A stretch of DNA of 64,000 nt. It comes from Candidatus Binatus sp. Its GTDB lineage: Bacteria > Desulfobacterota > Binatia > Binatales > Binataceae. Each line of letters opens with the position of its first letter. Position 1 is the stretch's first letter. Shown piece by piece: positions 6,457 through 49,616 of this stretch. The stretch is from NCBI RefSeq assembly GCF_050013435.1, contig NZ_JBEKFG010000010.1:8316-72315 (forward strand). The letters run 5' to 3'. The notes beneath the pieces are model-generated. The model ran no database searches. It was not told where the DNA came from and worked only from the letters and a program-made list of their open reading frames with translations. A program made the position numbers and the translations under genes.

Positions 6457-6490
6457 TTAGGATTCTAAAGATGGACAGGAGACTAAACTA

Positions 6491-7780: not shown

Positions 7781-7830
7781 GCGAGTCAATCCGATAAATC
7801 AGGGGCTTACGCCCCTCCAATAGCTCGAAC

Positions 7831-24226: not shown

Positions 24227-24314
24227 CGGCACGATGACGACATTGGGGGGATCAAGCGGGGTGCGACCGCGTTTTTTTTCGCCTCGATCTTCCACGCCGG
24301 CCGCGCATATCGCG

Positions 24315-33552: not shown

Positions 33553-34781
33553 TGCCGCGCGGCCGGCGGCATCCCGCGATGAAAGCGCCGTACCGCGTTG
33601 CGTGCCTGGTCAGCCATCCGATCCAGTACCAGGCGCCGCTGTTCCGCTATCTGGCGGCGCGTCCGGGCATTGAACTGACGGTTTTTTTCCTGAGCGATTT
33701 CTCGATCCGCGCCTATCGCGATTCGGGCTTTGGCGTGAGCGTGAAATGGGATGTGCCGCTGCTCGACGGCTACCGCCACGATTTTCTGCCGCATCTGGGT
33801 TCGGGAAGCGGACTTTCCTTCTGGCGGCCGTGGACGTTCGGGATGCGCACGCGGCTTCGACGCGGGCGATTCGACGCGTTGTGGGTCCACGGCTACGCGC
33901 ATCGCGGATGTATCGCGGGAATCGCGGCGGCGAAGTCCCTGGGCATCCCGGTAATGCTGCGCGGCGAGTCCAATCTGCTCAGCGAGACCGATGACGCGCT
34001 GAAGCTGCGCCTCAAGCGTATCGCGATGCCGGCGCTGCTGCGGACGATTGACGCGTGGCTGGCGATCGGGCGCCTCAATCGCGAATACTATCTTCATTAC
34101 GGCGTCGAAGCCGGCCGAATTTTTTCGATGCCTTACGCGGTGGACAACGAATTTTTTCGCGCCGCGGCGGATCAAGCGCGGCCGCGCCGCGAACGGCTGC
34201 GCGCCGAGCTTGGATTGCATCCGGGGCGCGCGGTGATTCTGTTCGCTTCGAAGATGCAGCCGCACAAGCGCGCCGGCGACCTGCTCGAGGCATACGCGCG
34301 AATGTCGCCCGACGGAGCCGCCGAGCCCGCGGCCTGCCTGGTCTTCGCCGGCGACGGCGAGGAGCGAGCCAAGCTCGAACGCCGCGCGCGCGCGCTGAAG
34401 TGGAACTCGATCCGCTTCATCGGCTTCAGGAACCAATCCGAACTTCCCGCCTTGTACGATCTATCCGACGTATTCGTGCTGCCCTCCGAGCACGAGCCGT
34501 GGGGGCTGGTGATCAACGAAGTAATGAACGCGGGCACGCCGGTCGTCGTGAGCGATCGCGTCGGCGCGGGGCCGGATTTGGTCGAGGACGGCGTCAATGG
34601 ATTCGTGTATCCGGCGCGCGACGTCGCGGCGCTCGCAAATCGGCTGCATCGGATGATCGACAACCCCGAGGATCGCGCCGCGATGGGCGCGCGCGCTCTC
34701 GAAAAAGTTGCGCATCTTGGCTTCGACGCGGACCGAGACGGCTTGCTGTCCGCGCTCGATTCGATTGTCGGGAAGGGGTGA
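33552..34781 (+). CDS. GT4-family glycosyltransferase (GT-B)
   Basis: VLPSEHEPWGLVINEVMNAGTPVVVSDRVGAGPDLVEDGVNGFV. The start overlaps the previous stop by one base (ctGATGc: TGA 33550-33552, ATG 33552-33554). Confidence 0.85.
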   Translation: MPRGRRHPAMKAPYRVACLVSHPIQYQAPLFRYLAARPGIELTVFFLSDFSIRAYRDSGFGVSVKWDVPLLDGYRHDFLPHLGSGSGLSFWRPWTFGMRTRLRRGRFDALWVHGYAHRGCIAGIAAAKSLGIPVMLRGESNLLSETDDALKLRLKRIAMPALLRTIDAWLAIGRLNREYYLHYGVEAGRIFSMPYAVDNEFFRAAADQARPRRERLRAELGLHPGRAVILFASKMQPHKRAGDLLEAYARMSPDGAAEPAACLVFAGDGEERAKLERRARALKWNSIRFIGFRNQSELPALYDLSDVFVLPSEHEPWGLVINEVMNAGTPVVVSDRVGAGPDLVEDGVNGFVYPARDVAALANRLHRMIDNPEDRAAMGARALEKVAHLGFDADRDGLLSALDSIVGKG

Positions 34782-34870
34782 CCCCTTCACCCAGTGTTAA
34801 GGCCGCGCTCCGTTGTCGCGCGCGGCCCCTGCCAACGGCTAAATGCTGCGCTGCCGTCGCCACGAGCAGG
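34778..34870. repeat. Composite intergenic repeat element, partial copy C
   Basis: ggggtgaccccttcacccagtgttaagg parallels aggggtgacccctgcacccggtgttaaga at 18909-18937, and ...gagccctgcc... motifs lie further on. Confidence 0.5.
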
Positions 34871-34955
34871 TCTGAGCCCTGCCAGGACCGGGTAAGGGGA
34901 GCAGTGGTGGGATTGTCGGAGCGATGAAGGACGCTGTTAGAGTTTCCCGGATGCC

Positions 34956-35960
34956 ATGATTCGCGGCCGGACCAAATGCCCGCTCGATCCGTTCCTGGTC
35001 GCGAATCTGGTCTGCCCGCGCGATCACATCGACCTCGACGCGGCCGGCGACGTGCTCGCTTGCGCCCAGCAGCATCGCTATCGCGTGGTTGGCGATATCC
35101 CGGTGATGTTGCTGGACGACGTGCCGCAGACGCTCGGCGTCGCATCCGATTCGCTGCGCGCCGTCAGCGACGATGCTGAACCGCCAACCGCATCAGCTGC
35201 GCCGCCGCCGGCTATCGGGGTTGACCCTTACGTGCAGAGCGCGATCGCCGCGACGGGAGGATATTTGTACGCGGGGCTAATCGGATCGCTCACCGAGTAT
35301 CCAATCCCCGAGATGCGCCTGCCGCGCGCCACCGGACCCGGCCAGTACCTCCTGGATATCGGATCGAACTGGGGCCGCTGGTGTATCGCGGCGTCGCGAC
35401 TCGGTTACGAACCGGTTGGAATTGATCCCGGTCTCGCGTCGCTTCAGGCAGCTTCACGAGTCGCCAGGCAACTCGGCGCAAAGGTGCGCTTCGTCGTAGG
35501 CGACGCGCGCTATCTGCCGTTTCACGATTCAGTTTTCAGCGTCGCGTTTTCGTACAGCGTATTGCAGCACTTCGCAAAGCCGGACGCCGTGCGCGCATTC
35601 GGCGAGGCCGGCCGCGTGCTGATGCCGGGCGGGCGCGCGTTGATCCAGATGGCGAATGTTTACGGCTTGCGCTGCCTCTACCATCAGGCGCGACGCCGCT
35701 TTCGCGAACCCGCCGGGTTCCAGGTTCGCTATTGGACACCGCGCGAACTGCGCCTGGCCGCATCGCGGGCGATCGGGCCGGCTACGATTTCAGTCGATGG
35801 CTACTTCAGCCTCAATCCGCAGCATTCCGACCTGCGCATCCTGCCTGCGCGATATCGCCTGATCGTGCGTGCGTCCGATGCGTTGCGCGCCGCCAGCGAG
35901 CGTGTGCCGGCGATGCTCCAGTTTGCCGACAGTATCTACCTGAGCGCTTTGAGGCCGTGA
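34956..35960 (+). CDS. Class I SAM-dependent methyltransferase with a Trm112-like N-terminal module
   Basis: N-terminus LVCPRDHIDLD...GDIPVML, then LLDIGSNWGRWCIAASRLGYEPVGIDP...VFSVAFSYSVLQH...LMPGGRALIQ. Confidence 0.8.
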   Translation: MIRGRTKCPLDPFLVANLVCPRDHIDLDAAGDVLACAQQHRYRVVGDIPVMLLDDVPQTLGVASDSLRAVSDDAEPPTASAAPPPAIGVDPYVQSAIAATGGYLYAGLIGSLTEYPIPEMRLPRATGPGQYLLDIGSNWGRWCIAASRLGYEPVGIDPGLASLQAASRVARQLGAKVRFVVGDARYLPFHDSVFSVAFSYSVLQHFAKPDAVRAFGEAGRVLMPGGRALIQMANVYGLRCLYHQARRRFREPAGFQVRYWTPRELRLAASRAIGPATISVDGYFSLNPQHSDLRILPARYRLIVRASDALRAASERVPAMLQFADSIYLSALRP

Positions 35961-35978
35961 AAGGAGAAATTAATTAAA

Positions 35979-36230
35979 TGCGGAACCCACCATGGGTTCC
36001 GCACCTCCTTGGGCAGGGCTGAGCCCTGCACCGCAGTGAGAAGACGTGAGAATCTGCGCAGCGCATCTTTTCGCGACTACGCAATGGAAGAACGGCAGGC
36101 GTGCGGGCTTCGCCCTGTTAGAAGAGGTTAAGGGGAAGCTTGGTTGCTCTTTTTTTGTGTCATTCTAGAGCGAAGCGAAGAATCCCGGATCCGGGTTCCT
36201 TCGCTACGCTCAGGATGACGGAAAAGAGAA
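35979..36230. repeat. Composite intergenic repeat element, copy D (includes the palindrome at 36159-36219)
   Basis: Hairpin gcggaaccca-cca-tgggttccgc (35979-36001), the shared motifs listed for copy A, then gtcattctagagcgaagcgaagaatcccgg/ccgggttccttcgctacgctcaggatgac. Confidence 0.7.
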
Positions 36231-36325
36231 ATGGGAGAGGAATTTGGAATTTGGACCCGCACCCGACGCTCGACGACTCGCGTCGGCCTCGCCCTGTCAG
36301 GGCGGTGCCACGGGCACGCGGCAAA

Positions 36326-36613
36326 GGAAAAGATCCGGGATTCTTCGCTGCGCAGACTCCGCTCTGAATGACAGAAAAGGAAGGAACCGGGATTCTTCGC
36401 TTCGCAGACTCCGCTCTAGAATGACAGAAAAGGAAGGATCCGGAATTCTTCGCTACGCAGACTCCGCTCTGAATGACAGAAAAGGAAAGATCCGGGATTC
36501 TTCGCTTCGCAGACTCCGCTCTGAATGACAGAAAAGGAAGGAACCGGGATTCTTCCCCTTCGGCAGCGCTCAGGGCTTCGGCTCAATCACAGCGACTTTC
36601 GCTCTAGAATGAC
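36326..36613. repeat. Tandem array of a 52-53 bp unit (about 4 full, 1 partial and 1 expanded copy)
   Basis: gaatgac recurs at 36366, 36419, 36471, 36523 and 36607. The unit is gaatgacagaaaaggaagga.ccgggattcttcgct.cgcagactccgctct. Each unit is the right half of the gtcat...gaatgac palindrome. Confidence 0.85.
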
Positions 36614-36643
36614 ACGGGCTGCCGTTCGCTTTTTTCCGTTATC

Positions 36644-37999
36644 GTGAGCGCAATGAAAACTTTGCACCTTCCGTTCTGCTTCTACCCTGATCCGGTTGGT
36701 GGCACCGAGATATACGTCGAATCGCTGGCTACGTGCCTGCGTAAGCTGAACGTTGAGGCGGAAATCGCGGTTCCGGCGCCTGATCAGCGTTCATATCGAT
36801 ACAATGACCTGACGGTGCATCGATTCGCGACCGGTACTCCGAGCTTGGCCGATTTATATGGCCTTGGGGATCCGGTTGCGGCACAGTCGTTTGCAAAGGT
36901 CCTTGAGTCTTGCGCACCCGATGTCGTACACCTGCATTCCTGGACCGCCGGGGTGTCAATCCGGGTATTGCGCATCGCCAAAGCCGCGGGTATCCCGGTC
37001 GTGTTCACCTATCATACGCCCACTGTCAGTTGCGTCCGCGGAACCCTGTTGCGCTGGGGAATCGAGCAATGCGATGGCGACCTGGAGTCATCGCCATGCG
37101 CCGCTTGCATGCTTCACGGCAAAGGACTTAGCCGCCCACTCAGCATTGCATTAGCCAGTCTGCCGGTCGCGATAGGCGAACGGATCGGCAAGCTCGGGCT
37201 GGAAGGAAGACTGATGACGGCGGTGCGCGCGTCGGAACTTATACATCTGCGCAAAGACGCGCTAACGGGTCTGTTCGACGAAGCTGACGCATTAGTCGCG
37301 GTGTGCAACTGGGTTTACGATTTGATGCTGCGAAATGGCGTGGACAAGTCGAAGCTGACAATCTCGCATCATGCATTGCGCAACTCGCCGCAACTGAACT
37401 ATCCAGGCGAACCGCGAAGGGCTGGTGACGATATCCGCATTGCCTTCCTGGGCAGGCTGGCGCGCGAGAAGGGTATCGATATTCTGCTCGCGGCGATGCG
37501 GCGAATCAGCAGCCCCCGGCTCAAGCTCGATATATTCGGCATCGCAAATGACAGCGAAGCGCAGTCCGTCAAGCAAACAGTGGTGGACGCAGCCGATCAG
37601 CGCATCCGGCTGCTCCCGCCCTTTGCCAACGTGAATGCGATATCCGAACTTCGCGGATACGATTGTCTCGCCGTCCCCTCGCAATGGTTGGAGACCGGTC
37701 CGCTGGTAGTGCTGGAGGCATTCGCCGCGGGTATTCCGGTCATTGGTTCCAACCTGGGTGGAATCGCGGAACTTGTGGAGCACGAGAAAAACGGGTTGCT
37801 GGTCGAGCCTGCTTCAATCGAGGCCTGGGTCGCGGCGTTGAATCGATTGCTAACGGAACCCGGGCTGCTGCCCCGGCTTCGACTTGGGATCCCGAAGAGT
37901 CGAACGATGGAGCAAGTCGCCGGCGAGATGTTAACCGTGTACCGCAAGCTCGCGCCCACGGTTGCGCCGTTGGCCAGCCTGGAGAATCGCCCGCAATGA
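36644..37999 (+). CDS. GT4-family glycosyltransferase (GT-B)
   Basis: MKTLHLPFCFYPDPVGGTEIYVESL..., C-terminal AVPSQWLETGPLVVLEAFAAGIPVIGSNLGGIAELVEHEKNGLL. GTG at 36644, or ATG at 36653. It ends ...ENRPQ with an ATGA overlap into the next gene. Confidence 0.85.
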   Translation: MSAMKTLHLPFCFYPDPVGGTEIYVESLATCLRKLNVEAEIAVPAPDQRSYRYNDLTVHRFATGTPSLADLYGLGDPVAAQSFAKVLESCAPDVVHLHSWTAGVSIRVLRIAKAAGIPVVFTYHTPTVSCVRGTLLRWGIEQCDGDLESSPCAACMLHGKGLSRPLSIALASLPVAIGERIGKLGLEGRLMTAVRASELIHLRKDALTGLFDEADALVAVCNWVYDLMLRNGVDKSKLTISHHALRNSPQLNYPGEPRRAGDDIRIAFLGRLAREKGIDILLAAMRRISSPRLKLDIFGIANDSEAQSVKQTVVDAADQRIRLLPPFANVNAISELRGYDCLAVPSQWLETGPLVVLEAFAAGIPVIGSNLGGIAELVEHEKNGLLVEPASIEAWVAALNRLLTEPGLLPRLRLGIPKSRTMEQVAGEMLTVYRKLAPTVAPLASLENRPQ

Positions 38000-39027
38000 A
38001 AGTGTCGGTCGTGATTCCCACCTATAACGACGAAGGCACGATTGCGGCCACGGTGGAGAGCGCGCTGGCGCAGCGGTTCGACGGAGCGTTCGAGGTGATC
38101 GTCGTCAATGACGGATCGACCGACGGCACGCGCGGGATACTGGCAAAATTCGGCGATCGGATCCGGGTGATCGATCAAAAGAACTCGGGCGTGTCGGCGG
38201 CGCGCAACGCCGGTATCAGAGCGGCGTCGGGCGAATATATCGCGCTGCTGGACGGCGACGATGCCTTTACCGAGGACAAGCTTCAGAAGACGGTGCCGGT
38301 GCTCGATGAAAATCCGGCGTGCGTGGCGGTGGCTTCGAACGTGATCGGGGTGGACGGCGCGGGCAGGGTCGTTTCGTACCCGGTTACGCCGGAATTCCGG
38401 CATTCACCGACGCTCGACGAGATGCTCGATCGGCTGTGGGCGTACCTGCCCAGCGCGTGCGTCATCCGGCGCGAGACGCTGGTGGCGATCGGCGGCTTTT
38501 CGGAAGAATTCAAACCGGAACATTACGCCTGCGAGGACACTTTCATTATGCTGCTGGTGCGCGAGCGCGGTGAAATTCGGTACGTGCCCGAGACGCTGGT
38601 CCGGTACCGTTACCGGGAATTTCGCGAACATCTCGCCAACCGGCTGCGCAGCCGGCGCCTCGAGATCGATTCAGCGCAGGCATTTCGCGAGTTCGAGCGC
38701 CGCTACGAGGCAAACCTCATCCTTGCGCGATTGACGCTGGAGCATTTCGGCGCTCGCGGCCGTAAACTTGCAGCCTTGGCGATCGATAGCGTCGCACGCG
38801 AACTGATCGGAGTCGGGTTGATGGCGATGTACGAGGGCGATCGCACGCTTGCCCGGCGATGCTACCGCGCGTCGATTCGCTATAATCCGCGGATGCTGAA
38901 GACCTATTTCCGGCTGGGGTGGGCGATGCTGCCCGCCAAAGTTGCGGAAATGCTGTCGCCGATGCTTCCGCATGGGTTGCGGCGCAGCCTGTCAGGCCCG
39001 CCGGTTTTCGAGGAACGCCCGCAATGA
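37996..39027 (+). CDS. GT2-family glycosyltransferase, cassette a, with conserved C-terminal tail module
   Basis: MKVSVVIPTYNDEGTI..., DGSTDGT, DxD LDGDD, tail ...GLMAMYEGDRTLARRCYRASIRYNPRMLKTYFRLGWAML...LRRSLSGPPVFEERPQ. ATGA overlaps at both ends. Confidence 0.9.
   Translation: MKVSVVIPTYNDEGTIAATVESALAQRFDGAFEVIVVNDGSTDGTRGILAKFGDRIRVIDQKNSGVSAARNAGIRAASGEYIALLDGDDAFTEDKLQKTVPVLDENPACVAVASNVIGVDGAGRVVSYPVTPEFRHSPTLDEMLDRLWAYLPSACVIRRETLVAIGGFSEEFKPEHYACEDTFIMLLVRERGEIRYVPETLVRYRYREFREHLANRLRSRRLEIDSAQAFREFERRYEANLILARLTLEHFGARGRKLAALAIDSVARELIGVGLMAMYEGDRTLARRCYRASIRYNPRMLKTYFRLGWAMLPAKVAEMLSPMLPHGLRRSLSGPPVFEERPQ
38959..39027 (+). repeat. Junction element J1
   Basis: ccgatgcttccgcatgggttgcggcgcagcctgtcaggcccgccggttttcgaggaacgcccgcaATGA. 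Confidence 0.85.
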
Positions 39028-40055
39028 AAGTGTCGGTCGTGATTCCCACCTATAACGACGAAGGCACGATTGCGGCCACGGTGCATAGCGCGCTGGCGCA
39101 GAAGTTCGAGGGCGGGTTCGAGGTGATCGTCGTCAACGACGGCTCGACCGACGGCACGCGCGGGATACTGGCAAAATTCGGCGATCGGATCCGGATGATC
39201 GATCAAGAGAACCTGGGGGTGTCGGCGGCGCGCAACGCCGGTATCAGAGCGGCGTCGGGCGAATACATCGCGCCCTTGGACGGCGACGATACGTGGACGG
39301 AGGACAAGCTTCAGAAGACGGTGCCGGTGCTCGACAAAAATCCGGCGTGCGTGGCGGTGTATTCGAACGTGATCGTGCTGGACGGCGCGGGCAGCGAACT
39401 TTGGTGCTGTGTTCCACCCGAATTCCAGCATTCGCCGACGCTCGACGAGATGCTCGATCGGGTGTGGGTGTATCTGCCCAGCGCGACCGTCATCCGGCGG
39501 GATACGCTGCTGGCGATCGGCGGATACTCGGAGGAATTCGCGGCGGGACATTACGGCTTCGAGGACACTTTCATTATGCTGCTGGTGCGCGAGCGCGGCG
39601 GAATCATGTTCCTGCCTGAGACGCTGGCGCGGCGCCCGTTCAGGGAATTCGCCACAAAGTACGCCAACCGGCTGCGCAGCCGGCGCTTCGAGATCGATTC
39701 GGCGGAAGCATTCAGCGAGTTCGAGCGCCGATTCGAGGGGAGCACTGTCTTTGCACGACTGGTGCGCGAGCACTTCGGCGCTCGCGGCCGCAAAATTGCA
39801 AAGTCGGCGGTCCATGGCGCCGCGAGCGAGTTGGTCGGAGTCGGGTTGATGGCGATGCACGACGGCAATCGCGGGTTCGCGGGGCGATGCTACCGCGCAT
39901 CGATTCGCTACAGACCGCTGATGTTGAAGACCTATTGCCGGCTGGGATGGGCCATGCTTCCCGGCAAAGTTGCGCAGCGCCTCTCCCCGATGCTTTCGCC
40001 GGGGCTGCGGCGCAGCCTGACAGGTCCTCCGGTTTTGGAAGAACGTCCGCAATGA
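39024..40055 (+). CDS. GT2-family glycosyltransferase, cassette b
   Basis: Same head (MKVSVVIPTYNDEGTIAATV) and tail (...RRSLTGPPVLEERPQ) as cassette a. Identity by eye is ~75-80%. Confidence 0.9.
   Translation: MKVSVVIPTYNDEGTIAATVHSALAQKFEGGFEVIVVNDGSTDGTRGILAKFGDRIRMIDQENLGVSAARNAGIRAASGEYIAPLDGDDTWTEDKLQKTVPVLDKNPACVAVYSNVIVLDGAGSELWCCVPPEFQHSPTLDEMLDRVWVYLPSATVIRRDTLLAIGGYSEEFAAGHYGFEDTFIMLLVRERGGIMFLPETLARRPFREFATKYANRLRSRRFEIDSAEAFSEFERRFEGSTVFARLVREHFGARGRKIAKSAVHGAASELVGVGLMAMHDGNRGFAGRCYRASIRYRPLMLKTYCRLGWAMLPGKVAQRLSPMLSPGLRRSLTGPPVLEERPQ
39987..40055 (+). repeat. Junction element J2
   Basis: ccgatgctttcgccggggctgcggcgcagcctgacaggtcctccggttttggaagaacgtccgcaATGA. Confidence 0.85.
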
Positions 40056-41071
40056 AAGTGTCGGTCGTAATTCCCACCTATAACAACGAAGGCACAATTG
40101 CGGCCGCAGTGGAGAGCGCGCTGGCGCAGAAGTTCGAGGGCGGGTTCGAGGTGATCGTCGTCAACGACGGATCGACCGACGGCACCGCCGAGGTCCTGCG
40201 CGGCTTCGGCGATCGCATCAAGGTGGTCGCGCAGCCCAATCGCGGGTGCGCAGCCGCAAGAAACGCCGCGGTGCGAAACTCAGCAGGAAAATACCTGGCG
40301 TTCCTCGATGCCGACGACGAATGGCTGCCGGAAAAGCTCGCGAAGACCGTATCGACGCTCGAGGGCGACTCAAATTGCGGGCTGGCCTATTCGGACGCCG
40401 CGCTGGTGGATTCGCGCGGCGTGCCCAGGAATCATTCGTATATTGCCGCGGGGTATTCCCGCGAGCCTTCATTGGACGACCTGCTGCGTGAGTGGTGGTG
40501 GATCCTGCCGAGCACAGCAGTGATGCGCCACTCGATCTACGATCGCTGTGGCGGTTTTGCCGAAGAATTCGGGCCGCGCGACTACGGCGGCTCCGACGTC
40601 CTGATGTGGATACGGGCGCGAGACCGCGCGCCCTTCCACTTCATTCGCGAGCAGCTCGTCCGCTATCAGCTAGCCGATCCCGTGGCCCATCTCGCGAAGC
40701 GGATTCCAAACTTCCCTGGAGGACCGAACGACGGCGGACCAGACATCCGCGCTCGGTCGCTGGTCCATGGAGAGGAGATTCTTATTCGCCTGGTCCGCCG
40801 CGAGTATGGCCGCAGAGCGCGAGGCCTCATTAGCAATCACCGCACAAAACAGGCCGAGATGCTGACCGTCGCGGGGATGCTGGCGATCAATCAGGGCAAC
40901 GCGCGCTTTGCGCGCGACTGCTACCTCGAAGCGCTGAAGCGGCGACCGCTCCAGTTGAAGCTGCCGTTTCGACTGGCGTGGACCTTGGTCCCGTCCTCGC
41001 TCGCCCGTCCGATCGCAGCGGTGCTGCCGCGGAGGATTGCGCGCGCTCTGTGCGGTCCTCCAGCGATTTGA
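40052..41071 (+). CDS. GT2-family glycosyltransferase, cassette c (divergent paralogue)
   Basis: It has the same 5' head (MKVSVVIPTYNNEGTIAAAVESALAQKFEGGFEVIVVNDGSTDGT). The rest is much more diverged, and the tail is recognisable but decayed (...RLAWTLVPSSLARPIAAVLPRRIARALCGPPAI). Confidence 0.85.
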   Translation: MKVSVVIPTYNNEGTIAAAVESALAQKFEGGFEVIVVNDGSTDGTAEVLRGFGDRIKVVAQPNRGCAAARNAAVRNSAGKYLAFLDADDEWLPEKLAKTVSTLEGDSNCGLAYSDAALVDSRGVPRNHSYIAAGYSREPSLDDLLREWWWILPSTAVMRHSIYDRCGGFAEEFGPRDYGGSDVLMWIRARDRAPFHFIREQLVRYQLADPVAHLAKRIPNFPGGPNDGGPDIRARSLVHGEEILIRLVRREYGRRARGLISNHRTKQAEMLTVAGMLAINQGNARFARDCYLEALKRRPLQLKLPFRLAWTLVPSSLARPIAAVLPRRIARALCGPPAI

Positions 41072-41135
41072 GCGCGGTGTTATCCGCCACCGCCAGGTTG
41101 GTGGCACTTAGCAGCCTACTTGTGGATCAAACACG

Positions 41136-42401
41136 TTGAATCATTCAAACCGTTCAAACCCTGGTGGCTACCAAGCGGCAAATATGAGCAGGCAAATGGC
41201 TGGAGGCACGCTTGGGCCGGACGTTCCTAAACCCTTGCCTAAAGCCTTGCCTAAAATCGTGCAGAAGGCTGCGGAATACAATCTAACGGAACACTGCAAC
41301 CTGAGATGCGCAGGTTGCAGTCATAGCTCGGAGCTTTTGCCGAAGAAATTTGCCGAGGTGAAGGAATTTCAACGCGACTTAGCCGTGCTTTCGCAGGTGC
41401 TGCATCTTAATGAGTTGAGACTCTTAGGGGGCGAGCCCTTGTTGCACCCCGATTTGCTGGAGTATCTGCGATGTGCGCGCGCGAGCGGGCTTGCAGAAGA
41501 GATAACCTTGAGCACCAACGGCCTGCTCCTGCATCGCTGCGATCCGGCGACATTTGAGCTGATTGATCGGTTGCGGGTCAGCCTTTACCCCGGTGTCAGG
41601 CTCCGAGTTGAAGAGCGTGAGCTCGAATCCTTATCGAGAAGATATAACTTTAAGCTGGAGCTTAAAAGAGTTGACAGCTTCAGAGTTACCACGCTCAACA
41701 GCCGCCATCGGGATGCCAGCTTGGTGCGGCGAATCTTCAGGCAGTGCGCCTTGGCGCATGACTGGAGCTGCCACACAGTTCATCAAGGTTACTACTTCAA
41801 ATGTTCGCCGGCTCCTTTTCTGCAAGGCCGAATGGCGCTCAGAGGTGAGTCGGTCCTGAACCGCGATTTAGACGGGGTGAGGATTCATGACAACCCGCGA
41901 CTCAGAGAAGAGTTGGAAGCCTACTTGCGCGACGAGGAACCGCTCGAGGCGTGTTACTATTGTCTCGGCTCGTCCGGACGCAGGTTTCCTCATCGACAGT
42001 TGAATAGCAAAAAATTGCGCGAAGAGATTGACCGGAGCGGGAAACTGCGCGACCCACCGGCAGACCCGCAGCGGCACGTCAGAGGATACCATGCGTGGGC
42101 GCGGCTGATGCACGAGCGATTCGGCGCTCGCGCCCGCAGCCTTGCGGACTATGCAATCGATTCGATAGCGCACGAGCAAGTGGCCATGGGAATGATGGCG
42201 ATGCATGAAGGCGATCGCAGGTTCGCGCGGCGATGTTACCTGAGCTCGCTCCGCAACCGGCCGTTGAAGCTGAAGACCTACGTTAGGCTGGCGTGGGCGA
42301 CTGTGCCGGCGAGCGTCACGCAAATGCTGTCACCGATGCTCGCGCCGGGGCTGCGGCGCAGCCTGTCAGGTCCGCCGTTTTTGGAAGAACGTCCGCAATG
42401 A
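41136..42401 (+). CDS. Radical SAM enzyme carrying the GT2-cassette C-terminal tail module (chimeric architecture)
   Basis: CX3CX2C motif HCNLRCAGC (nt 41295-41318), GGEPLLHP, a later Cys pair CYYC. The last ~105 aa, FGARARSLADYAIDS...GMMAMHEGDRRFARRCYLSSLRNRPLKLKTYVRLAWATVP...LRRSLSGPPFLEERPQ, are homologous to the GT2 tails. TTG start at 41136; an ATG alternative lies ~50 nt downstream. Confidence 0.75.
   Translation: MNHSNRSNPGGYQAANMSRQMAGGTLGPDVPKPLPKALPKIVQKAAEYNLTEHCNLRCAGCSHSSELLPKKFAEVKEFQRDLAVLSQVLHLNELRLLGGEPLLHPDLLEYLRCARASGLAEEITLSTNGLLLHRCDPATFELIDRLRVSLYPGVRLRVEERELESLSRRYNFKLELKRVDSFRVTTLNSRHRDASLVRRIFRQCALAHDWSCHTVHQGYYFKCSPAPFLQGRMALRGESVLNRDLDGVRIHDNPRLREELEAYLRDEEPLEACYYCLGSSGRRFPHRQLNSKKLREEIDRSGKLRDPPADPQRHVRGYHAWARLMHERFGARARSLADYAIDSIAHEQVAMGMMAMHEGDRRFARRCYLSSLRNRPLKLKTYVRLAWATVPASVTQMLSPMLAPGLRRSLSGPPFLEERPQ
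42333..42401 (+). repeat. Junction element J4
   Basis: ccgatgctcgcgccggggctgcggcgcagcctgtcaggtccgccgtttttggaagaacgtccgcaATGA. Confidence 0.85.
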
Positions 42402-43435
42402 AAGTGTCGGTCGTGATTCCCACCTATAACAACGAAGGCACAATTGCGGCCACGGTGGAGAGCGCGCTGGCGCAGCGGTTCGAGGCCAAGTTCGAGGTGA
42501 TCGTCGTCAACGATGGATCGACCGACAGCACGCGCGGGATACTGGCAAAATTCGGCGATCGGATCCGCGTGATCGATCAAAAGAACTCGGGCGTGTCGGC
42601 GGCGCGCAACGCCGGCATCAGAGCGGCGTCGGGCGAATATATCGCGCTGCTGGACGGCGACGATACGTGGAATGAAGACAAGCTTCAGAAGACGGCGCCG
42701 GTGCTCGATGAAAATCCGGCGTGCGCGGCGGTATTCTCGGATGTGATGCAGGTGGACGGCGCGGGCAAGGAATATGGAACCTGGGTTTCACCCGAATTCC
42801 AGCATTCGCCGACGCTCGACGAGATGCTTGAGTGGCCGTGGCCGAACCTGCCCAGCGCGACCGTCATACGGCGGGAGACGATCATGGCGATCGGCGGTTT
42901 CTCGGAGGAATTCGGCCGTCGCGGATACGGCGGCGAAGACACGTTCGCGGCCCTGCTGGTGCGGGAGCGGGGCGAAATTCACTTCGTGCCGGATAAACTG
43001 GTGCGCTACCGGCTTTCGGACTTTAACGGGAATTTGGCCAAGCGGATCCGCTCGCGCGACAGCAACCAAAGCGGGATCGATCAGTTCGAAGAGCCGGAGC
43101 GGCTGAGCGACGGGCTTTTGATTTTTGCACGACTGGTGCGCGAGCATTTCGGCGCTCGCGGCCGCAAACTTGCAGAATGGGCGATCGATAAGCTCGCGAA
43201 CGAGCTGATCGCAGTCGGGATGACGGCGATGCACGAGGGCGATCGCACGCTTGCGCGGCGATGCTATCGCGCGTCGCTTCGCTACAGACCGCTGATGTTG
43301 AAGACTTATTTCCGGCTCGGGTGGGCCATGCTTCCCGCCAAAGTTGCGGGAATGCTGTCCCCGATGCTTCCGCCGCGGCTGCGGCGCAGCCTGTCAGGTC
43401 CGCCGTTCCATGGCTTGCCGGATCGCCCGCAATGA
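42398..43435 (+). CDS. GT2-family glycosyltransferase, cassette d
   Basis: Head MKVSVVIPTYNNEGTIAATVESALAQRF, LDGDD, tail ...LRRSLSGPPFHGLPDRPQ. Confidence 0.9.
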   Translation: MKVSVVIPTYNNEGTIAATVESALAQRFEAKFEVIVVNDGSTDSTRGILAKFGDRIRVIDQKNSGVSAARNAGIRAASGEYIALLDGDDTWNEDKLQKTAPVLDENPACAAVFSDVMQVDGAGKEYGTWVSPEFQHSPTLDEMLEWPWPNLPSATVIRRETIMAIGGFSEEFGRRGYGGEDTFAALLVRERGEIHFVPDKLVRYRLSDFNGNLAKRIRSRDSNQSGIDQFEEPERLSDGLLIFARLVREHFGARGRKLAEWAIDKLANELIAVGMTAMHEGDRTLARRCYRASLRYRPLMLKTYFRLGWAMLPAKVAGMLSPMLPPRLRRSLSGPPFHGLPDRPQ

Positions 43436-43466
43436 ATCGGAAATCATGAACATCCTGGAACGAGCC
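43361..43466 (+). repeat. Junction element J5 (long form)
   Basis: ccgatgcttccgccgcggctgcggcgcagcctgtcaggtccgccgttccatggcttgccggatcgcccgcaATGAatcggaaatcATGAacatcctggaacgagcc. Confidence 0.85.
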
Positions 43467-43549
43467 AGCGCTGCGCCTGAGATCAGAAACGGCGCATGGC
43501 TAACTCGACGCAGATGGGTCGATAAGTCGATATCAAGAGGAACGCGCTG

Positions 43550-44422
43550 ATGCCGCTTGCAGGGCGCATGCTTCGAGCAGTGCGATTGCACCGACCGGCG
43601 CTCTGGTGTTACTGGAGGTGCCGCCATGCAGGCGAGTATCTGCAGAGCCTGGGCGTAGCACGCGGGCTGATCGCTATGTTTGTACTGCGCACCCGTCCGG
43701 GAGCGTCCGGTCGCACGCTGGGACTACTGATTCCGGGTTCTCGAAGACCATTTTTCCTGCGAGGCGGAACCGCCGATGTCAGGGTGTTCCGGCAGATTTT
43801 TATGGAACGGCAATACGATGTGGAGGTCTCGCCCGAGCCGCGCCTCATAATCGATGCAGGCGCCCATATTGGGTGCGCGAGCGTGTTCTTTGCTTGCAGG
43901 TACCCGCAGGCCACCATCCTGGCAATAGAACCAGAGGCGGCCAACTTCGAGATGCTGCGCAGGAATGCCGCCCCTTACCGCAACATCGTGCCGATCCGCG
44001 CGGCCATATGGGGACGGCCTGACGTTCTTGCAATCGCAAATCCAAGCGATGAATCGTGGCGATTTCAGACTCGGCAAGCAACGGCAGCCGAGGTCGATAC
44101 CGTGGTCGGGATCACGATTGAGGAGCTGCTAAGATGGACGGGCGCACCCTTGATCGACATACTCAAGATCGACATCGAAGGGGCTGAAAAACAGCTGTTC
44201 TCCGCCCCGTGTGATCGTTGGCTCGGCCGGGTATGTGCGATGTTCGTCGAACTGCACGACCGTTTTGAGCCTGATTGCGGGGAGGCCCTTCGGCGGGCCA
44301 CGGCGCCCTACGGTTTCGTCGAATCGCAGCGGGGCGAAGACGTTATCCTGCGGCGCGACTGTACGATGGAGATCAACCGCCATCTCGAAGGGAGAGGCAA
44401 TGTTTGGGACGCCCCCATTTGA
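43550..44422 (+). CDS. FkbM-family methyltransferase
   Basis: IIDAGAHIGCASVFFACRYPQATILAIEPEAANFEMLRRN and IDILKIDIEGAEKQLF. Confidence 0.8.
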   Translation: MPLAGRMLRAVRLHRPALWCYWRCRHAGEYLQSLGVARGLIAMFVLRTRPGASGRTLGLLIPGSRRPFFLRGGTADVRVFRQIFMERQYDVEVSPEPRLIIDAGAHIGCASVFFACRYPQATILAIEPEAANFEMLRRNAAPYRNIVPIRAAIWGRPDVLAIANPSDESWRFQTRQATAAEVDTVVGITIEELLRWTGAPLIDILKIDIEGAEKQLFSAPCDRWLGRVCAMFVELHDRFEPDCGEALRRATAPYGFVESQRGEDVILRRDCTMEINRHLEGRGNVWDAPI

Positions 44423-44610
44423 TCCTCACCGACCATCGCCTCGCATACTACTATCGCCAGAACCTCATGATGTTTGCCTCCGACGAAGGCGCGGTAGCGC
44501 ATCCGCCTTGGCGGCGTACTCCGGGGCGCTTGAAACCCTCGGCCTCGAATGGGGCCACGCCCCGGTCCACGAGCTGGCTCTAAGTGACCGCGCGATTCTT
44601 TTGCGCGCGC

Positions 44611-44710
44611 CCGATGCTTTCGCCGCGGCTGCGGCGCAGCCTGTCAGGTTCACCGTTTTTGGAAGAACGTCCGCAATGAATCGGCAATCATGAACATCCT
44701 GGAACGAGCC
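44611..44710 (+). repeat. Junction element J6 (long form, lies outside any credible CDS)
   Basis: ccgatgctttcgccgcggctgcggcgcagcctgtcaggttcaccgtttttggaagaacgtccgcaATGAatcggcaatcATGAacatcctggaacgagcc. It begins ~190 nt after the FkbM stop at 44422. Confidence 0.85.
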
Positions 44711-44731
44711 CGTCTTCTACCCGGTTAACTC

Positions 44732-46387
44732 ATGACCAACGCCGTCGCCGCGTCTCACACGCCGGGTCTTCCCGGACGCGCCAATACCCAAAGCCGCGAG
44801 CCGCGTGGCGAGCTGATTCGATGGTTTTCGAAACCGGCGACTGCGCTTGCGCTCATCGTCGTGTCCGGCGCGGCGCTGCGAATCCTAAAAATCACCGACT
44901 ACAGCCTCTGGGGTGACGAGGGCTTCAGCGCCGCTATCGTGATGCAGCCGTGGCGCCCATTTTGGCTGTCGATACTTTACGAGCCATGGACCGCGTTTTA
45001 CTTCGTGCTCTTGAAACCCTGGACGCTCTGTTTTGGGACCGGCGAGGTGGCGCTGCGCTCGTTGTCGGTAGTGTTGGGCCTCGTGGCTATCGTGGCGATC
45101 TATTATCTCGGTGAGCGGCTCTTCAGCCGCCGGGCAGGATTGATCGCGGCCGCGATGACCGCCGTCAGCCCGGTGCAAATCTGGTATTCCCAGGAGGTGC
45201 GCGGCTATTCGCTCTATGTACTTCTGAGCGCCCTGTGCTGGCTCGCGTTTCTGGCGGCTCTTCACAATTCCCGGCCGCGAAATCTGAGCATATGGTCCGT
45301 GCTGATGGTGCTCATGGGTTATTGCCATTTTATTGGATTGGGCATTATCCCCGCGCAATGGGTCTGCATCGCGATTCGGCGTCCCGATTTATCCTCCGTC
45401 AAGCGCCTCGCTCTGGCGACCGCGGCCGCCGCAGTCGCTTTGGCGCTAATTCCGATTTTCATGGTGACGCTGAACTCCGGACAGGCAGGCTGGATTGCTC
45501 CGCTTTCATGGGCGGAGATCGCCGATGTTTTCGTGACAGTCTCAGGTGGGCTTCACGGCAATGCCGGTGCGATTTTCTGCCTGACTTATGTCCTGCTTCT
45601 GATCTGGGCCTTTCTCGGGTCATTTCAAAAGGGCAACGATCGGTCAGGATGGGAGAGTTGCGCATTTGCGTCAGCCGGATTTCTGGTTCCGATCATGGCA
45701 ACGATTGCGGGCGGGTTTTTCGTGCCGATGCTGATGGGGCGGTATCTCCTGCTTTGCTTTCCGCCTTTCGTAGTACTCGCCGCGCAAGGCCTTTTGACTG
45801 TTCGCCCGCGGAAGGCAGCGCTCATCGTGGTCGCCGCACTTGTCGCCTTGACCGCGTGGGAACTGCGCGACTCCTACAATTTAGAATCACGGGATGACTG
45901 GCGCAGCACGGCTCAATACGTGATGAGGCACGGCCAACCCGGCGACGCTGCGATTTTCGTCACTCCGGAGTGCCGCTACGCGTTCCAATATTACGCCGCA
46001 CGAGAACCAAACACTGCTGCCTTCCCCGTTATACTGGGCGAGAACCGCGACCTCGTGGACGGGATTCGAATCGTGACGAATCGGTTCCCGTCCTATACCA
46101 GCGGCGTGCTGGGGAAGGTCGGTTCACTCCCGAAGAGTTACCGTCGCATTTGGCTCATGAAGCCGGGCAGTATTGATCTCGATCCGCGCGACCCGAACAA
46201 ACGGGAATCCGTGCAGTTGGCTGCCGCGCTGGCGCACGAATACCGGACCCATCCTCCAGTCATCTTCAACGGAGTATCGGTGTGGCTCTACGACACGCCC
46301 GATGCTTCCGCCGCTGCTGCGGCGCAGCCTGTCAGGTCCGCCGTTCCACGGCTTGCCGCAGCGCCCACAATGAATCGGAAATCATGA
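44732..46387 (+). CDS. Polytopic membrane glycosyltransferase, GT-C fold (GT39/ArnT/PMT_2-like)
   Basis: About 12 predicted TM segments, a first-loop acidic motif YSLWGDEGFSA, and ...GEVALRSLSVVLGLVAIVAIYYLGERLFSRRAGLIAAAMTAVSPVQIWYSQEVRGYSLY. The C-terminus reads through junction J7 in a different frame (DASAAAAAQPVRSAVPRLAAAPTMNRKS). Confidence 0.7.
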   Translation: MTNAVAASHTPGLPGRANTQSREPRGELIRWFSKPATALALIVVSGAALRILKITDYSLWGDEGFSAAIVMQPWRPFWLSILYEPWTAFYFVLLKPWTLCFGTGEVALRSLSVVLGLVAIVAIYYLGERLFSRRAGLIAAAMTAVSPVQIWYSQEVRGYSLYVLLSALCWLAFLAALHNSRPRNLSIWSVLMVLMGYCHFIGLGIIPAQWVCIAIRRPDLSSVKRLALATAAAAVALALIPIFMVTLNSGQAGWIAPLSWAEIADVFVTVSGGLHGNAGAIFCLTYVLLLIWAFLGSFQKGNDRSGWESCAFASAGFLVPIMATIAGGFFVPMLMGRYLLLCFPPFVVLAAQGLLTVRPRKAALIVVAALVALTAWELRDSYNLESRDDWRSTAQYVMRHGQPGDAAIFVTPECRYAFQYYAAREPNTAAFPVILGENRDLVDGIRIVTNRFPSYTSGVLGKVGSLPKSYRRIWLMKPGSIDLDPRDPNKRESVQLAAALAHEYRTHPPVIFNGVSVWLYDTPDASAAAAAQPVRSAVPRLAAAPTMNRKS

Positions 46388-46404
46388 ACATCCTGGAACG
46401 AGCC
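46299..46404 (+). repeat. Junction element J7 (long form)
   Basis: ccgatgcttccgccgctgctgcggcgcagcctgtcaggtccgccgttccacggcttgccgcagcgcccacaATGAatcggaaatcATGAacatcctggaacgagcc. Confidence 0.85.
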
Positions 46405-47205
46405 GGCGCTGCAATCCGTCACGCACCGGGGTTGGAACATGCCGACTGGCTGTGGGACCGGATCCGGCCTGCGTACGATCGGATGCTGGCGACAATTGCG
46501 CGTGGTCACGGCCTGGAACGGGTGATCAATGGCACTGACACGATCCGCCTGAGCCCGCAGTCGCGTGGGTTCGTTGCGCAAGAGTATGAACCGGCGGTCT
46601 GGGGCCGCGTGATGCACGAAGTCAGGACGGGCGACCAGGTGGTGGAAGTCGGCGCAAGTTTTGGACTCTACGCGCTGGCGTTCGCGGGACGAGTCGGGGA
46701 GGCGGGCCATGTCACGGCGTTCGAACCCGATCCTCAGAGTGCCTCGGCTCTGGAAGCCAACGTCAGAGTCAACGGCTGGCAAGACAGAATAACCGTGATC
46801 AGAGCCGCGGTCGGCCAGCGCAGCGGACAAGTCCGCTTTGCCGCGGCGCGGGGAATGGAATCGCGAATCGAGACGCGTTCGGATTCGGGCGACGGCGTGA
46901 TTACGGTGCCGCTTGTCACGCTCGACGGGCAGCTGGCCGGCGGGAGAATCGATGTCATGAAAATCGACGTCGAGGGCTTCGAGCAGCAGGTTATCCAGGG
47001 TGCGCGAACGATCCTGACTGAACAGCATCGGCGTCCCCGGGCGATCCTGCTGGAAGTGCATCCTTTCGCGTGGGCGGAGACGGGCACGACCAGCGCGAGC
47101 TTTCTCGGCCTGCTGGATGAATTGGGCTTCAAAGTCGAGGATATGGGGGGCGCCGCGGTTTCGAGCATCAGCGAATACGGGCACGTGATCGCGCTTCGGA
47201 AATGA
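46384..47205 (+). CDS. FkbM-family methyltransferase
   Basis: The start MNILERAG lies within J7. VVEVGASFGLYALAFAGRVGEAGHVTAFEPDPQSASALEANV and IDVMKIDVEGFEQQVIQGA. Confidence 0.8.
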   Translation: MNILERAGAAIRHAPGLEHADWLWDRIRPAYDRMLATIARGHGLERVINGTDTIRLSPQSRGFVAQEYEPAVWGRVMHEVRTGDQVVEVGASFGLYALAFAGRVGEAGHVTAFEPDPQSASALEANVRVNGWQDRITVIRAAVGQRSGQVRFAAARGMESRIETRSDSGDGVITVPLVTLDGQLAGGRIDVMKIDVEGFEQQVIQGARTILTEQHRRPRAILLEVHPFAWAETGTTSASFLGLLDELGFKVEDMGGAAVSSISEYGHVIALRK

Positions 47206-48434
47206 AACCCCGATTGCTTATCACGATATACGCGAATCCGGATTATTATCCGCCGACAGTGTATGCAGTTCGGATACTAAGTAGCTATTTCACGATACAC
47301 ATTCTTTGCCGGAACATGGCCGAGCCGATTGAAGAATGGCCCGCCGATGTGACTATCGAGCGATTCGGCGCGTACGCGTCGCCGCGCGAAAAAGAAGCGG
47401 CGAGCGCGGGTGCAAAGCTGATCGAATATGCGAAATTCATCGCGCGGACGCGCGCGCTGGTCAAGCAGATGCAGCCGGCGATTGTCTATTCGTACGACCC
47501 GCACGCGTTGGTCGCAAGCATTGTCGGGCGGATGGGCGGGAGAGCGACGCCGCTGATATTTCAGCTCCACGAGTTGCCGGAGACGGCGAGTCTCTCGTGG
47601 ACCTCGATGCAAACGTGGGTCGTAAAGGCGGCGTTAACCGGCACCAAGTCGGCAGATGCAGCAGTGTTTCCGGAAAAGTATCGCGCCCGCCACTGGCTAA
47701 CGGCTGCGGGAGACTCGCGCGCGCCGATAATCGTGCCGAATTGTCCCGGTCGGAGTTACTATCCCGGGCCGGCAGATTGGAACGAGACGATCGCGATGAG
47801 ATATCGCGCGCGGGAAGTGGTTTACGTCGGCTACGCGAGCGCCGCCAACGGCCATCTGGAGGGACTGCGTGCGCTAGCGATGACGGACGGCAGCATTCGG
47901 ATGCGGGTGATCGGCGGCTATCTTGCCGAATTCGAGGCGAGCTTCAACGCGCTCGGACGCGAGCTTGGCGTCACGGATCGAGTGCGGCTGGACGGATGGC
48001 TGGCGCTTGATGAGTTGCGAGCGCGGGCTTCCCGCGCGTCGGTGGGACTCGCGCTCCACAAACCGGCGACGAAGAATCTGGAATACCTGGGATCGGCGAG
48101 CAACAAGCTGTTCGAATACGCGGCGATGGGATTGCCGGTGGTAGTGCCGGATCGCGAGAGCTACCGAGGCTTCCTGGGCGATGCGGAGTGGGTGACGTAT
48201 GCCGACATCGAAGATCCGGGATCGATCGCGCGCGCGATCACGTCGATCTTCGCGGACCGCGAGCGATACGCCACGATGAGCCGCGCGGCGCGGCGCGCAT
48301 TCGAGGAACAATATAACTACGAGCGGGTCTTTGCCCCGGTGCTCGATCGCATTTTCGAATTGAGCGGTATGGCGAACCCCAGCCAGGTTCCGGCATGCGA
48401 TCTTACGCAGCCGCAGGCAACGCCGGCGTCATGA
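47202..48434 (+). CDS. GT-B glycosyltransferase (GT4-like)
   Basis: C-terminal nucleotide-sugar-binding region SASNKLFEYAAMGLPVVVPDRESYRGFLG. ATGA overlap with the upstream gene. Confidence 0.7.
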   Translation: MKPRLLITIYANPDYYPPTVYAVRILSSYFTIHILCRNMAEPIEEWPADVTIERFGAYASPREKEAASAGAKLIEYAKFIARTRALVKQMQPAIVYSYDPHALVASIVGRMGGRATPLIFQLHELPETASLSWTSMQTWVVKAALTGTKSADAAVFPEKYRARHWLTAAGDSRAPIIVPNCPGRSYYPGPADWNETIAMRYRAREVVYVGYASAANGHLEGLRALAMTDGSIRMRVIGGYLAEFEASFNALGRELGVTDRVRLDGWLALDELRARASRASVGLALHKPATKNLEYLGSASNKLFEYAAMGLPVVVPDRESYRGFLGDAEWVTYADIEDPGSIARAITSIFADRERYATMSRAARRAFEEQYNYERVFAPVLDRIFELSGMANPSQVPACDLTQPQATPAS

Positions 48435-49588
48435 AGGTCTGTGTTGCGAGCGCCGGCCCGTTTCACGTTTTCGATCTGGCGCGCCAGATGGAACGCCTCG
48501 GCCATCTGGCCCGCTTCTACACCGCCTATCCGCGCTTCAAGGTGGATGGACTGCCGGCTGCGAAAGTAAGCAGCTTCCCCTGGATCATGGGACCGGCCGC
48601 GCTCGCGGGACGTCTTGGAATGCCGGGACTGCGCGAGCGCCTGAATTTTCCGATGATCGAAACGTTCGACCGCTGGATGGCGAAACGGCTCGCGCCGTGC
48701 GACGTGTTCCATTGCCTATCCAGCTTCGGCTTGCAGAGCCATCGAGCGGCGCGCTCAAGGCACGGCGCGCTTACGGTGTGCGATCGGGGCTCATCGCATA
48801 TCACATTCCAAAATGAGATTTTGCGCGATGAATACGAGCACTACGGCATCCCGTATCGCGGGATCGACGCGCGCATCGTCGAACGCGAGCTTGCCGAGTA
48901 CGAATTCTGCGACCTGATCAGCGTGCCGTCGAGCTTCTCGATCCGATCGTTCGTCGAGAAGGGCGTGGCGCGCGACAAGCTGCGGCTCAATCCCCTGGGC
49001 GTCGATCTCTCGATGTTCCATCCGATGCCCAAGCGCGACGCAGTCTTCCGCGTGCTGTTTGTCGGTTCGATTTCGATTCGCAAGGGAATCGCTTACCTGC
49101 TCGAGGCGGTCAAGCGCGCGGGGATTGGGGCGCTCGACCTGGTGCTGATTGGGCAGGTCGATAAGGACGCGGCGCGCATCGTCGCCAAGTGCGATGTGCC
49201 GCTGCGCCAGCTGGGCGTGCTCCCCCGCACTGAGCTCGCCGCGCATTATTCGCAGGCCTCGGTGCTGGTCCTGCCGTCAGTCGAAGACGGCTTCGGGTTG
49301 GTCATGGCGCAGGCGATGGCATGCGGCGTCCCGGTGATCGCGACGACCAACACCGGCGCCGAGGATCTGTTCACCGACGGTGTCGAAGGGTTCATCGTTC
49401 CGATTCGCGACGGAGCCGCGATTGCCGACAAGATCGTCTTTCTGCGCGAGCATCCGGAGATGCGCGACGCGATGGGCGCCGCCGCTCTTGCCCGGGTGCG
49501 CGCGCTGGGCGGATGGAACAGCTACGGCGAGCAGATGGCGGCGATGTATCAGGCCGCACTCGCCGCATGCGCAGCCGCGGGGCGTTGA
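48431..49588 (+). CDS. GT4-family glycosyltransferase (GT-B)
   Basis: MKVCVASAGPFHVFDLARQ..., FVGSISIRKGIAYLLEA, LPSVEDGFGLVMAQAMACGVPVIATTNTGAEDLFTDGVEGFIV. ATGA overlap at 48431. Confidence 0.85.
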   Translation: MKVCVASAGPFHVFDLARQMERLGHLARFYTAYPRFKVDGLPAAKVSSFPWIMGPAALAGRLGMPGLRERLNFPMIETFDRWMAKRLAPCDVFHCLSSFGLQSHRAARSRHGALTVCDRGSSHITFQNEILRDEYEHYGIPYRGIDARIVERELAEYEFCDLISVPSSFSIRSFVEKGVARDKLRLNPLGVDLSMFHPMPKRDAVFRVLFVGSISIRKGIAYLLEAVKRAGIGALDLVLIGQVDKDAARIVAKCDVPLRQLGVLPRTELAAHYSQASVLVLPSVEDGFGLVMAQAMACGVPVIATTNTGAEDLFTDGVEGFIVPIRDGAAIADKIVFLREHPEMRDAMGAAALARVRALGGWNSYGEQMAAMYQAALAACAAAGR

Positions 49589-49616
49589 AATAGTAAAATG
49601 GCAACTGGTGGACCGC

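Follow-up and report, generated by a model that had tools for sequence, protein, structure and literature searches.

We analysed a 64-kb stretch of DNA from Candidatus Binatus (the window; all coordinates are window positions), in which a short sequence recurs at the boundaries of successive polysaccharide-modification genes. Open reading frame (ORF) and Pfam calls place these genes in a compact plus-strand operon at 36.6-48.4 kb, which runs from a GT4 glycosyltransferase through to the GT4-like glycosyltransferase GT10 (Table 1). Between these flanks lie four GT2 glycosyltransferase paralogues (GT2a to GT2d; 41-76% amino acid identity to GT2a, three of them in a 1028-nt register), a radical-SAM enzyme, the FkbM-family methyltransferases MT7 and FkbM9, and a PMT_2-family membrane glycosyltransferase. 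An initial annotation, made from the sequence of the window, had taken the recurring sequence for a distinct junction element separating enzyme cassettes, and the array for a built-in generator of polysaccharide variants.

A recurring sequence at the gene boundaries

A repeat search recovered six 71-nt copies (J1, J2 and J4 to J7; starts 38958, 39986, 42332, 43360, 44610 and 46298) with 65-100% identity to the reference copy, and every copy that the initial annotation had listed is present at its coordinates. The repeated sequence extends over 69-115 nt at the gene boundaries between 38.9 and 46.4 kb. J5 and J7 have 115 nt in common at 95% identity, and J5, J6 and J7 share another 46 nt past the stop codon; the same search also yielded 300-nt families that cover the GT2 heads and C-terminal regions. 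A 45-nt core, with up to 3 mismatches allowed, was found at 5 sites compared with 0 in 100 shuffles. No minus-strand copy of this core was found in a scan of the window, nor any copy of the repeat outside the array within the 64 kb, and every copy lies on the plus strand at a gene 3' end, in direct orientation.

The sequence also occurs in two reduced forms. The minimal junction at 37981-37999, where GT4 ends in ..ENRPQ, matches the other junctions over its last ~19 nt as had been proposed, and consists of the Shine-Dalgarno sequence, spacer and ATGA of GT2a, from which the identity runs on into the GT2 head. The GT2 heads are themselves 83-100% identical over +0..+119, including that of the otherwise diverged GT2c, in agreement with the common head of ~100 nt noted earlier. 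The decayed form near 41020-41071 is likewise real, being the diverged GT2c tail (41008-41071; ..LPRRIARALCGPPAI and a stop codon), but it has no ATGA overlap. The statement that every copy ends in such an overlap therefore needs qualification, also in that the ATGA of J5, J6 and J7 opens only a mini-ORF, MNRKS.

Table 1. Genes and composite junctions of the variable array and its flanks.
Feature	Position	Strand	Remarks
GT4 glycosyltransferase	36644..37999	+	Left flank of variable array; Pfam Glycos_transf_1 / Glyco_trans_4
GT2a, 343 aa	37996..39027	+	Pfam PF00535; 3' end is J1 (38959-39027)
GT2b	39024..40055	+	Tandem paralogue in 1028-nt register; 3' end is J2 (39987-40055)
GT2c	40052..41071	+	Diverged paralogue, 41% aa identity to GT2a; decayed tail 41008-41071
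Radical-SAM enzyme	41136..42401	+	Pfam PF04055; 3' end is J4 (42333-42401)
GT2d, 345 aa	42398..43435	+	FHGLPDRPQ-type tail, start of J5; Pfam
J5	43361..43474	+	GT2d tail, mini-ORF and FkbM-head remnant (MNILERASAA..); left direct repeat of MT7 cassette
MT7, FkbM-family methyltransferase cassette	43550..44422	+	Pfam PF05050
J6	44610..44710	+	Non-coding tail relic, mini-ORF and 21-nt FkbM-head remnant; intergenic
PMT_2-family membrane glycosyltransferase cassette	44732..46387	+	Pfam PF13231
J7	46298..46412	+	Tail relic, mini-ORF and true FkbM9 start (46384); 95% identical to J5
FkbM9 methyltransferase	46384..47205	+	Pfam PF05050
GT10, GT4-like glycosyltransferase	47202..48434	+	Conserved right flank of variable array; Pfam

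The repeat encodes the C-terminus of a GT2 family

Four of the six copies form the 3' end of the gene before them, in frame with it (GT2a for J1, GT2b for J2, the radical-SAM gene for J4 and GT2d for J5), while J6 and J7 are relics; the description of genes separated by an element does not fit these four. What the repeat encodes is the last ~23 codons of a GT2 family of Candidatus Binatus, ..SPMLxPxLRRSLSGPPxxEERPQ and the stop codon. For GT2a more than 100 full-length homologues were found, at 57-86% identity; 115 of the best 120 terminate in ..LSPMLxPxLRRSLSGPP, after which come 7-9 residues and the stop codon, and G334, P335 and P336 are invariant in the family alignment. Members of the family are built from an N-terminal PF00535 domain, a helical C-terminal module of ~120 amino acids and the ..RRSLSGPP.. 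tail. Consistent with this, the AlphaFold2 model of GT2a (pLDDT 90) has a GT-A domain followed by the helical module, with tail residues 314-333 forming two short helices and disorder limited to the last ~8 residues. Positions 17-64 of the module are TPR-like; a Foldseek search with the GT2a model matched GT-A enzymes, and against the PDB it returned matches to the GT-A domain only and no analogue of the C-terminal module.

The disordered end, ..EERPQ and stop, is encoded by GAGGAACGCCCGCAATGA, in which an AGGA Shine-Dalgarno sequence is followed by a 9-nt spacer and then by the ATGA at which the next gene overlaps. Because the final codons hold these signals for the gene downstream, even the unrelated GT4 ends in ..ENRPQ. 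The repeat is therefore the conserved GT2 C-terminus together with the region where translation of the following gene initiates, and not the distinct junction element first proposed.

The radical-SAM enzyme carries the same type of C-terminal module (~100 amino acids, about 42099-42401) fused in frame, and this fusion is kept in three related loci (L008, L031 and L032) and, at ~60% identity, in a fourth (L022, 9700-11412). This conservation indicates that the module, which to date had no name, is a genuine protein domain common to two enzyme classes. It may serve in both as a shared docking, localisation or membrane-association domain, and its helix LKTYFRLGWAMLP may be a candidate membrane-association segment. 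A 225-nt fragment of the Binatus-type module (..MLSPRLRRSLSGPPKER and stop; L026, 10001-10237) was also observed, with no intact ORF, inside a polysaccharide locus of an Alphaproteobacteria metagenome-assembled genome (MAG) chromosome, and may be a remnant of horizontal transfer.

The tail under tests for nucleotide-level function

Codon choice in the tail appears at first sight to be fixed, with AGC at the first Ser in 37/37 copies and TCA and GGT frequent. Across 23 GT2 genes, however, the excess codon homozygosity of the tail, 0.15-0.20, lies inside the range of the gene body, 0.08-0.32; the same excess is found gene-wide, and we therefore reject nucleotide-level selection on the tail and ascribe its fixed codons to relatedness and not to a special constraint. 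The GGCTGC/GCAGCC hairpin that had been pointed out within the repeat fares no better, as no more than 8 of the 28 distinct variants in the family retain all 6 pairs, no compensatory change occurs across the 28, and five repeat copies fold no better than shuffles (z-scores -0.7 to +0.4). With neither conservation nor covariation we consider this hairpin incidental and reject a functional one. An RNA motif or riboswitch was likewise rejected, since the folds resemble shuffles and Rfam gave no match over 34000-50000 at E <= 1, as was a repetitive extragenic palindromic (REP) or miniature inverted-repeat transposable element (MITE)-like intergenic repeat, given four coding copies out of six, no significant structure and no occurrence elsewhere in the window.

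Tail relics, a mini-ORF and the FkbM head

The two relics differ in how they are read. In J6 the tail frame meets a stop codon 16 codons upstream, whereas the PMT_2 gene reads J7 in the +1 frame and takes its last 33 codons from it, an overprinted extension that in L031 bears a 45-nt in-frame deletion. Relic lengths are unequal among the cassettes (about 70, 190 and 300 nt), indicating an element without defined ends. In the three 3'-most junctions the five-codon mini-ORF MNRKS (ATGAATCGGAAATCATGA; 43432-43449, 44676-44693 and 46370-46387) links the tail stop to the MNILERA start via two successive ATGA overlaps, and the shared sequence runs on into the first 7-10 codons of FkbM9 (MNILERA..), although the true FkbM9 follows J7 only. 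In two distant relatives (L029 and L033) the mini-ORF is absent and the final GT2 tail forms a direct overlap with the FkbM start, which argues that this arrangement is ancestral and that MT7 and PMT_2 are insertions flanked by duplicated junctions.

Further traces of the same sequences were seen. A 97-aa ORF at 44400-44693 overlaps the MT7 stop and reads J6 in the +1 frame in the manner of PMT_2 and J7; some assemblies annotate it as a gene. Internal deletions of FkbM9 occur in L032 (13365-13760) and L009 (about 11313-11400), leaving the MNILERA head fused to its C-terminal end. In another genome a GT2 homologue (P0081) starts with MNLLERAGVA-MKVSVV.., an FkbM-head remnant fused in frame before the GT2 head.

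Cassette sets and breakpoints among relatives

Among named genomes the nearest belong to Candidatus Binatus and to the 'Deltaproteobacteria bacterium palsa' MAGs. A cassette map built by tblastn over 22 loci, together with nucleotide alignments, shows that cassette number and order vary among the closest relatives, as the initial annotation would have it, and are not fixed (Table 2). Cassette sets differ among at least five close lineages (about 90-96% identity), with the breakpoints inside the element. While the GT4 left flank is found in all relatives, GT2d is missing in L007, L008 and L032, MT7 is limited to the window strain and L027, and the PMT_2 cassette is preceded by differing genes in L007, L008 and L031 and missing in L027, L032 and L033. 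L007 has in addition an extra class-I methyltransferase behind GT2a, flanked by a 190-nt duplicated tail. In three-way alignments the switch from left to right partner always falls inside the element, at crossover points that vary, and J6 is the partner joined in turn to J2, J4 and J5.

Table 2. Arrangement of the array in the window and in related loci.
Locus	Identity to window	Arrangement	Junction
Window		GT4-GT2a-GT2b-GT2c-rSAM-GT2d-MT7-PMT2-FkbM9-GT10	
L031	~95% nt	Window order without MT7	J5 joined to J6
L027	93%	rSAM-GT2d-MT7 then FkbM9, no PMT2	J6 joined to J7
L008	~92%	..rSAM then PMT2	J4 joined to J6
L032	~91%	..rSAM then internally deleted FkbM9	J4 joined to FkbM head
L007	95-96%	GT4-GT2a-MTx-GT2b-PMT2-FkbM9	J2 joined to J6
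L009			J2 joined to FkbM head
More distant genomes	Lower	One to four tailed GT2 genes preceding FkbM9 or GT10	

Within a lineage the picture is uniform. Across 22 contigs drawn from several samples the window arrangement does not vary, and 3 full-length loci among them match at 99.99-100% identity. A 21.6-kb part of the window is found again, at 99.99-100% identity, in several assemblies of peat and soil metagenomes. The L007-type arrangement is likewise constant across 24 contigs. The recurrence of each arrangement in so many contigs means that the variants are real and that each is fixed within its lineage. We found no structural variants within a strain, the six loci with an identical PMT_2 protein being collinear with the window at 99.99-100% identity. 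A scan of metagenome DNA for the pattern that follows the tail yielded two loci only, each of them informative but together too few for a population survey.

Gene conversion between junctions

Comparison of paralogous junctions reveals that they have exchanged sequence. Across the 69 nt of the element, 5 sites in the window and 6 in L008 distinguish the GT2b tail from the radical-SAM tail, against 7-8 sites between orthologues; over the 240 nt upstream of it the paralogues differ at 77-87 sites and the orthologues at 25-27. The same holds for synonymous choices: where GT2b and the radical-SAM gene encode the same amino acid, the codon is identical in 85% of cases in the tail versus 58% upstream; for the GT2c head the shares are 90-97% versus 53-58% further in. 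J2 and J4 in fact share a 180-nt island (-60..+120) at 90-97% identity amid 43-80%. The equal synonymous divergence inside and outside the element that the initial annotation had named as evidence against its proposal is thus not seen between some paralogue pairs, in which the element is far less diverged than its flanks, although family-wide the tail does equal the gene body.

Moreover, lineage-specific variants are common to several copies in one genome, namely TTTTGGAAGAACGT in the window and GTCCTGGAGGAACG in L008 and L032. The window J7 is of the J5 type (FHGLPQRPQ), while L007 and L008 have a LEERPQ-type relic at the orthologous place, a switch that indicates gene conversion. The window J6 has the GGTTCACCG/LEERPQ 3' half, which is also present in the J7 of L007, and the window J7 has the J5-type 3' half; this pattern could have arisen if a PMT_2 segment entered an L027-like array by crossovers within the element. 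More distant genomes showed no marked identity islands at their junctions.

Interpretation and alternatives

Taken together, these results suggest that the array is likely the product of passive, homology-driven cassette turnover and concerted evolution in a set of tandem GT2 paralogues, and not of an integron-like system. Whole enzyme genes have probably been gained or lost exactly at the repeats in related peat-soil bacteria, by ordinary homologous recombination. Because the next gene takes its Shine-Dalgarno sequence and ATGA overlap from the final tail codons, a tandem duplication would copy the tail together with the next head as one block. Such blocks of 70-180 nt, the sole high-identity stretches between diverged neighbours, would then act as passive homology arms for RecA-type recombination, and unequal crossing-over, direct-repeat deletion, block-bounded insertion of foreign DNA and short-patch gene conversion might all have occurred. 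Heterologous enzymes (the radical-SAM enzyme, two or three methyltransferases and PMT_2) would have been captured between blocks, each being flanked by a full tail on one side and by a tail relic or in-frame fusion on the other. The expected outcome is a set of lineages with differing enzyme combinations and presumably differing polysaccharide decorations. That the repeats are recombination substrates, as first suggested, agrees with their coincidence with breakpoints among relatives and with the gene conversion; the dependence on RecA, the direction of each event (insertion or deletion) and the effect on the glycan we infer. The element itself is neither autonomous nor dedicated, and owes its existence to protein constraint and translational coupling.

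Several points weigh against this explanation. The evidence comes from assemblies, which are uniform within a lineage, so that recombination appears between lineages only. Several of the relatives are short-read MAGs, in which repeats can give rise to mis-joins, a risk mitigated by multiple independent contigs and by contigs (e.g. L008) whose names point to long-read assembly. The signs of conversion may stem from a small number of recent events in one clade and not from a general property. Finally, J6 and J7 begin at the same nucleotide (after ..CG and before CCCGATGCTT) even though their left flanks are unrelated, and random illegitimate joins do not predict such an identical left boundary.

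A bolder version of cassette turnover, which we regard as unlikely, is that the tail/head block is a portable, protein-encoded homology arm in which DNA and protein modularity coincide and are kept so by selection. Any enzyme gene gaining the block could then join or leave the array by RecA alone, peat Binatus populations would hold a recombinase-free, integron-like pool of polysaccharide-decorating cassettes, and the TPR-like module would dock each inserted enzyme onto the same assembly complex.

We think it unlikely that the element is a conserved protein tail only, without a role in rearrangement, and that the differences between genomes are unrelated indels or assembly errors. The tail is indeed conserved and structured as a protein, its synonymous diversity across the family equals that of the gene body, and cassette order is constant within each lineage. 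Yet the 70-115 nt element contains all six of the independent breakpoints, and protein function does not account for relics that are non-coding or out of frame (J6, J7 and the relic in L007). Gene-conversion signatures are present as well, and the variants recur in many independent contigs.

Equally improbable in our view is that the array is a selected generator of diversity, in which second-order selection maintains the blocks for frequent RecA-dependent enzyme swapping and many variants coexist in each population. The combinatorial presence and absence of cassettes among close lineages, the direct and single orientation of all copies and the blocks borne by heterologous cassettes speak for such a generator. 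Nevertheless, we see no sign of the high frequency implied by a built-in source of variants: the arrangement is identical in 22/22 and 24/24 contigs of the two best-sampled lineages, variants distinguish only lineages at about 90-96% identity, the combination of protein constraint with translational coupling accounts fully for the blocks, and relics decay, as in L031.

It is most improbable that the repeat is an attC- or shufflon-like site acted on by a site-specific recombinase whose gene lies outside the locus, elsewhere in the genome, since its superficially integron-like layout of co-oriented cassettes each followed by a repeat, and the left end common to J6 and J7, stand against the absence of an integrase or transposase among 50 ORFs of the window scanned with Pfam and in the locus gene tables of the relatives, the absence of inverted-repeat or folded structure and of inverted copies, and the variable relic lengths and crossover points.

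Relation to known systems

The initial annotation knew of no described system of this form, but comparable recombination of tandem paralogues through their end blocks has already been reported. In the esaG and tipC immunity gene arrays of Staphylococcus and Streptococcus, tandem paralogues recombine via conserved 5' and 3' blocks (Garrett et al. 2022, PMC9484751). Similar to these, the Binatus array consists of non-identical tandem paralogues with short high-similarity blocks at the gene ends, its copy number and content vary among close relatives with breakpoints in the blocks, and its paralogues undergo gene conversion. It differs in that the paralogues are glycosyltransferases in a polysaccharide locus, in that the block straddles the stop/start overlap and so reaches from one gene's tail into the head of the following gene, and in that the array captured unrelated enzymes (radical SAM, methyltransferases and PMT_2), leaving relics or fusions.

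Orphan toxin cassettes of Rhs and CdiA offer a second parallel, as recombination there re-joins modules to the full-length gene (Koskiniemi et al. 2014, PMC3967940). In both cases conserved coding fragments flank variable modules and provide homology, and relics accumulate in the array; however, the conserved fragment lies 5' of the orphan toxin in Rhs/CdiA and is a 3' tail in Binatus, and the modules are toxin/immunity pairs in the former and whole enzymes with no toxin function in the latter. Minimal mobile elements (2007, as outlined in PMC3787668) exchange genes between conserved flanks by homologous recombination. They resemble the Binatus array in that content between conserved flanks varies among close relatives without dedicated mobility genes; the homology in them is whole flanking genes with one site per element, whereas in Binatus it is a 70-180 nt block repeated in the array, and several cassettes can vary independently.

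The likeness to integron arrays that the initial annotation had noted holds for the layout, with co-oriented, promoterless single-gene cassettes each followed by ~60-140 nt of recurring sequence, a feature not diagnostic alone. The analogy fails on structure and integrase: scans of the window revealed no IntI, attI, attC-type palindrome or folded strand, the repeat is coding sequence, and the cassette boundaries are not fixed. Considering that no integrase occurs among the scanned ORFs of the window, and considering the missing attC-like structure and the variable relic lengths, we reject an integron or other site-specific system.

The array does not reveal a new class of genetic element. What it does show, at nucleotide resolution, is the diversification of exopolysaccharide decoration genes in an uncultivated soil lineage (Binatia) without mobile-element machinery, where a conserved C-terminus overlapping the next start comes to serve as a site of crossover, with capture of unrelated enzymes between these sites. 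It thereby offers a natural example for studies of glycan-locus evolution and of phage or predator pressure. Our search of the literature on Binatia glycosyltransferase arrays found nothing relevant.

Surrounding locus

The surrounding 64 kb are a large exopolysaccharide/capsule locus of the Wza/Wzi type. Pfam identifies a Wza-like exporter (25712-28834) and Wzi (29570-31255), as well as many GT4 enzymes, a carbamoyltransferase and a GDP-mannose dehydratase. Immediately upstream of the Wza-like exporter gene lies a NusG-family paralogue (24234-24830), a candidate RfaH/LoaP-type antiterminator for the long polysaccharide operon. At 4981-9301 three DUF1329 (LolA-like) paralogues stand in tandem, adjoining a MacB-type ABC transporter and an HlyD-family protein. 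L007 lacks window positions 34800-36638 and thus the methyltransferase at 34956-35960. The gap 5' of GT4 contains a 52-bp tandem repeat (36323-36555; 4.4 copies, 92% match) with a degenerate copy near 36187, and is itself variable, L031 having 155 nt in place of window positions 36191-36600.

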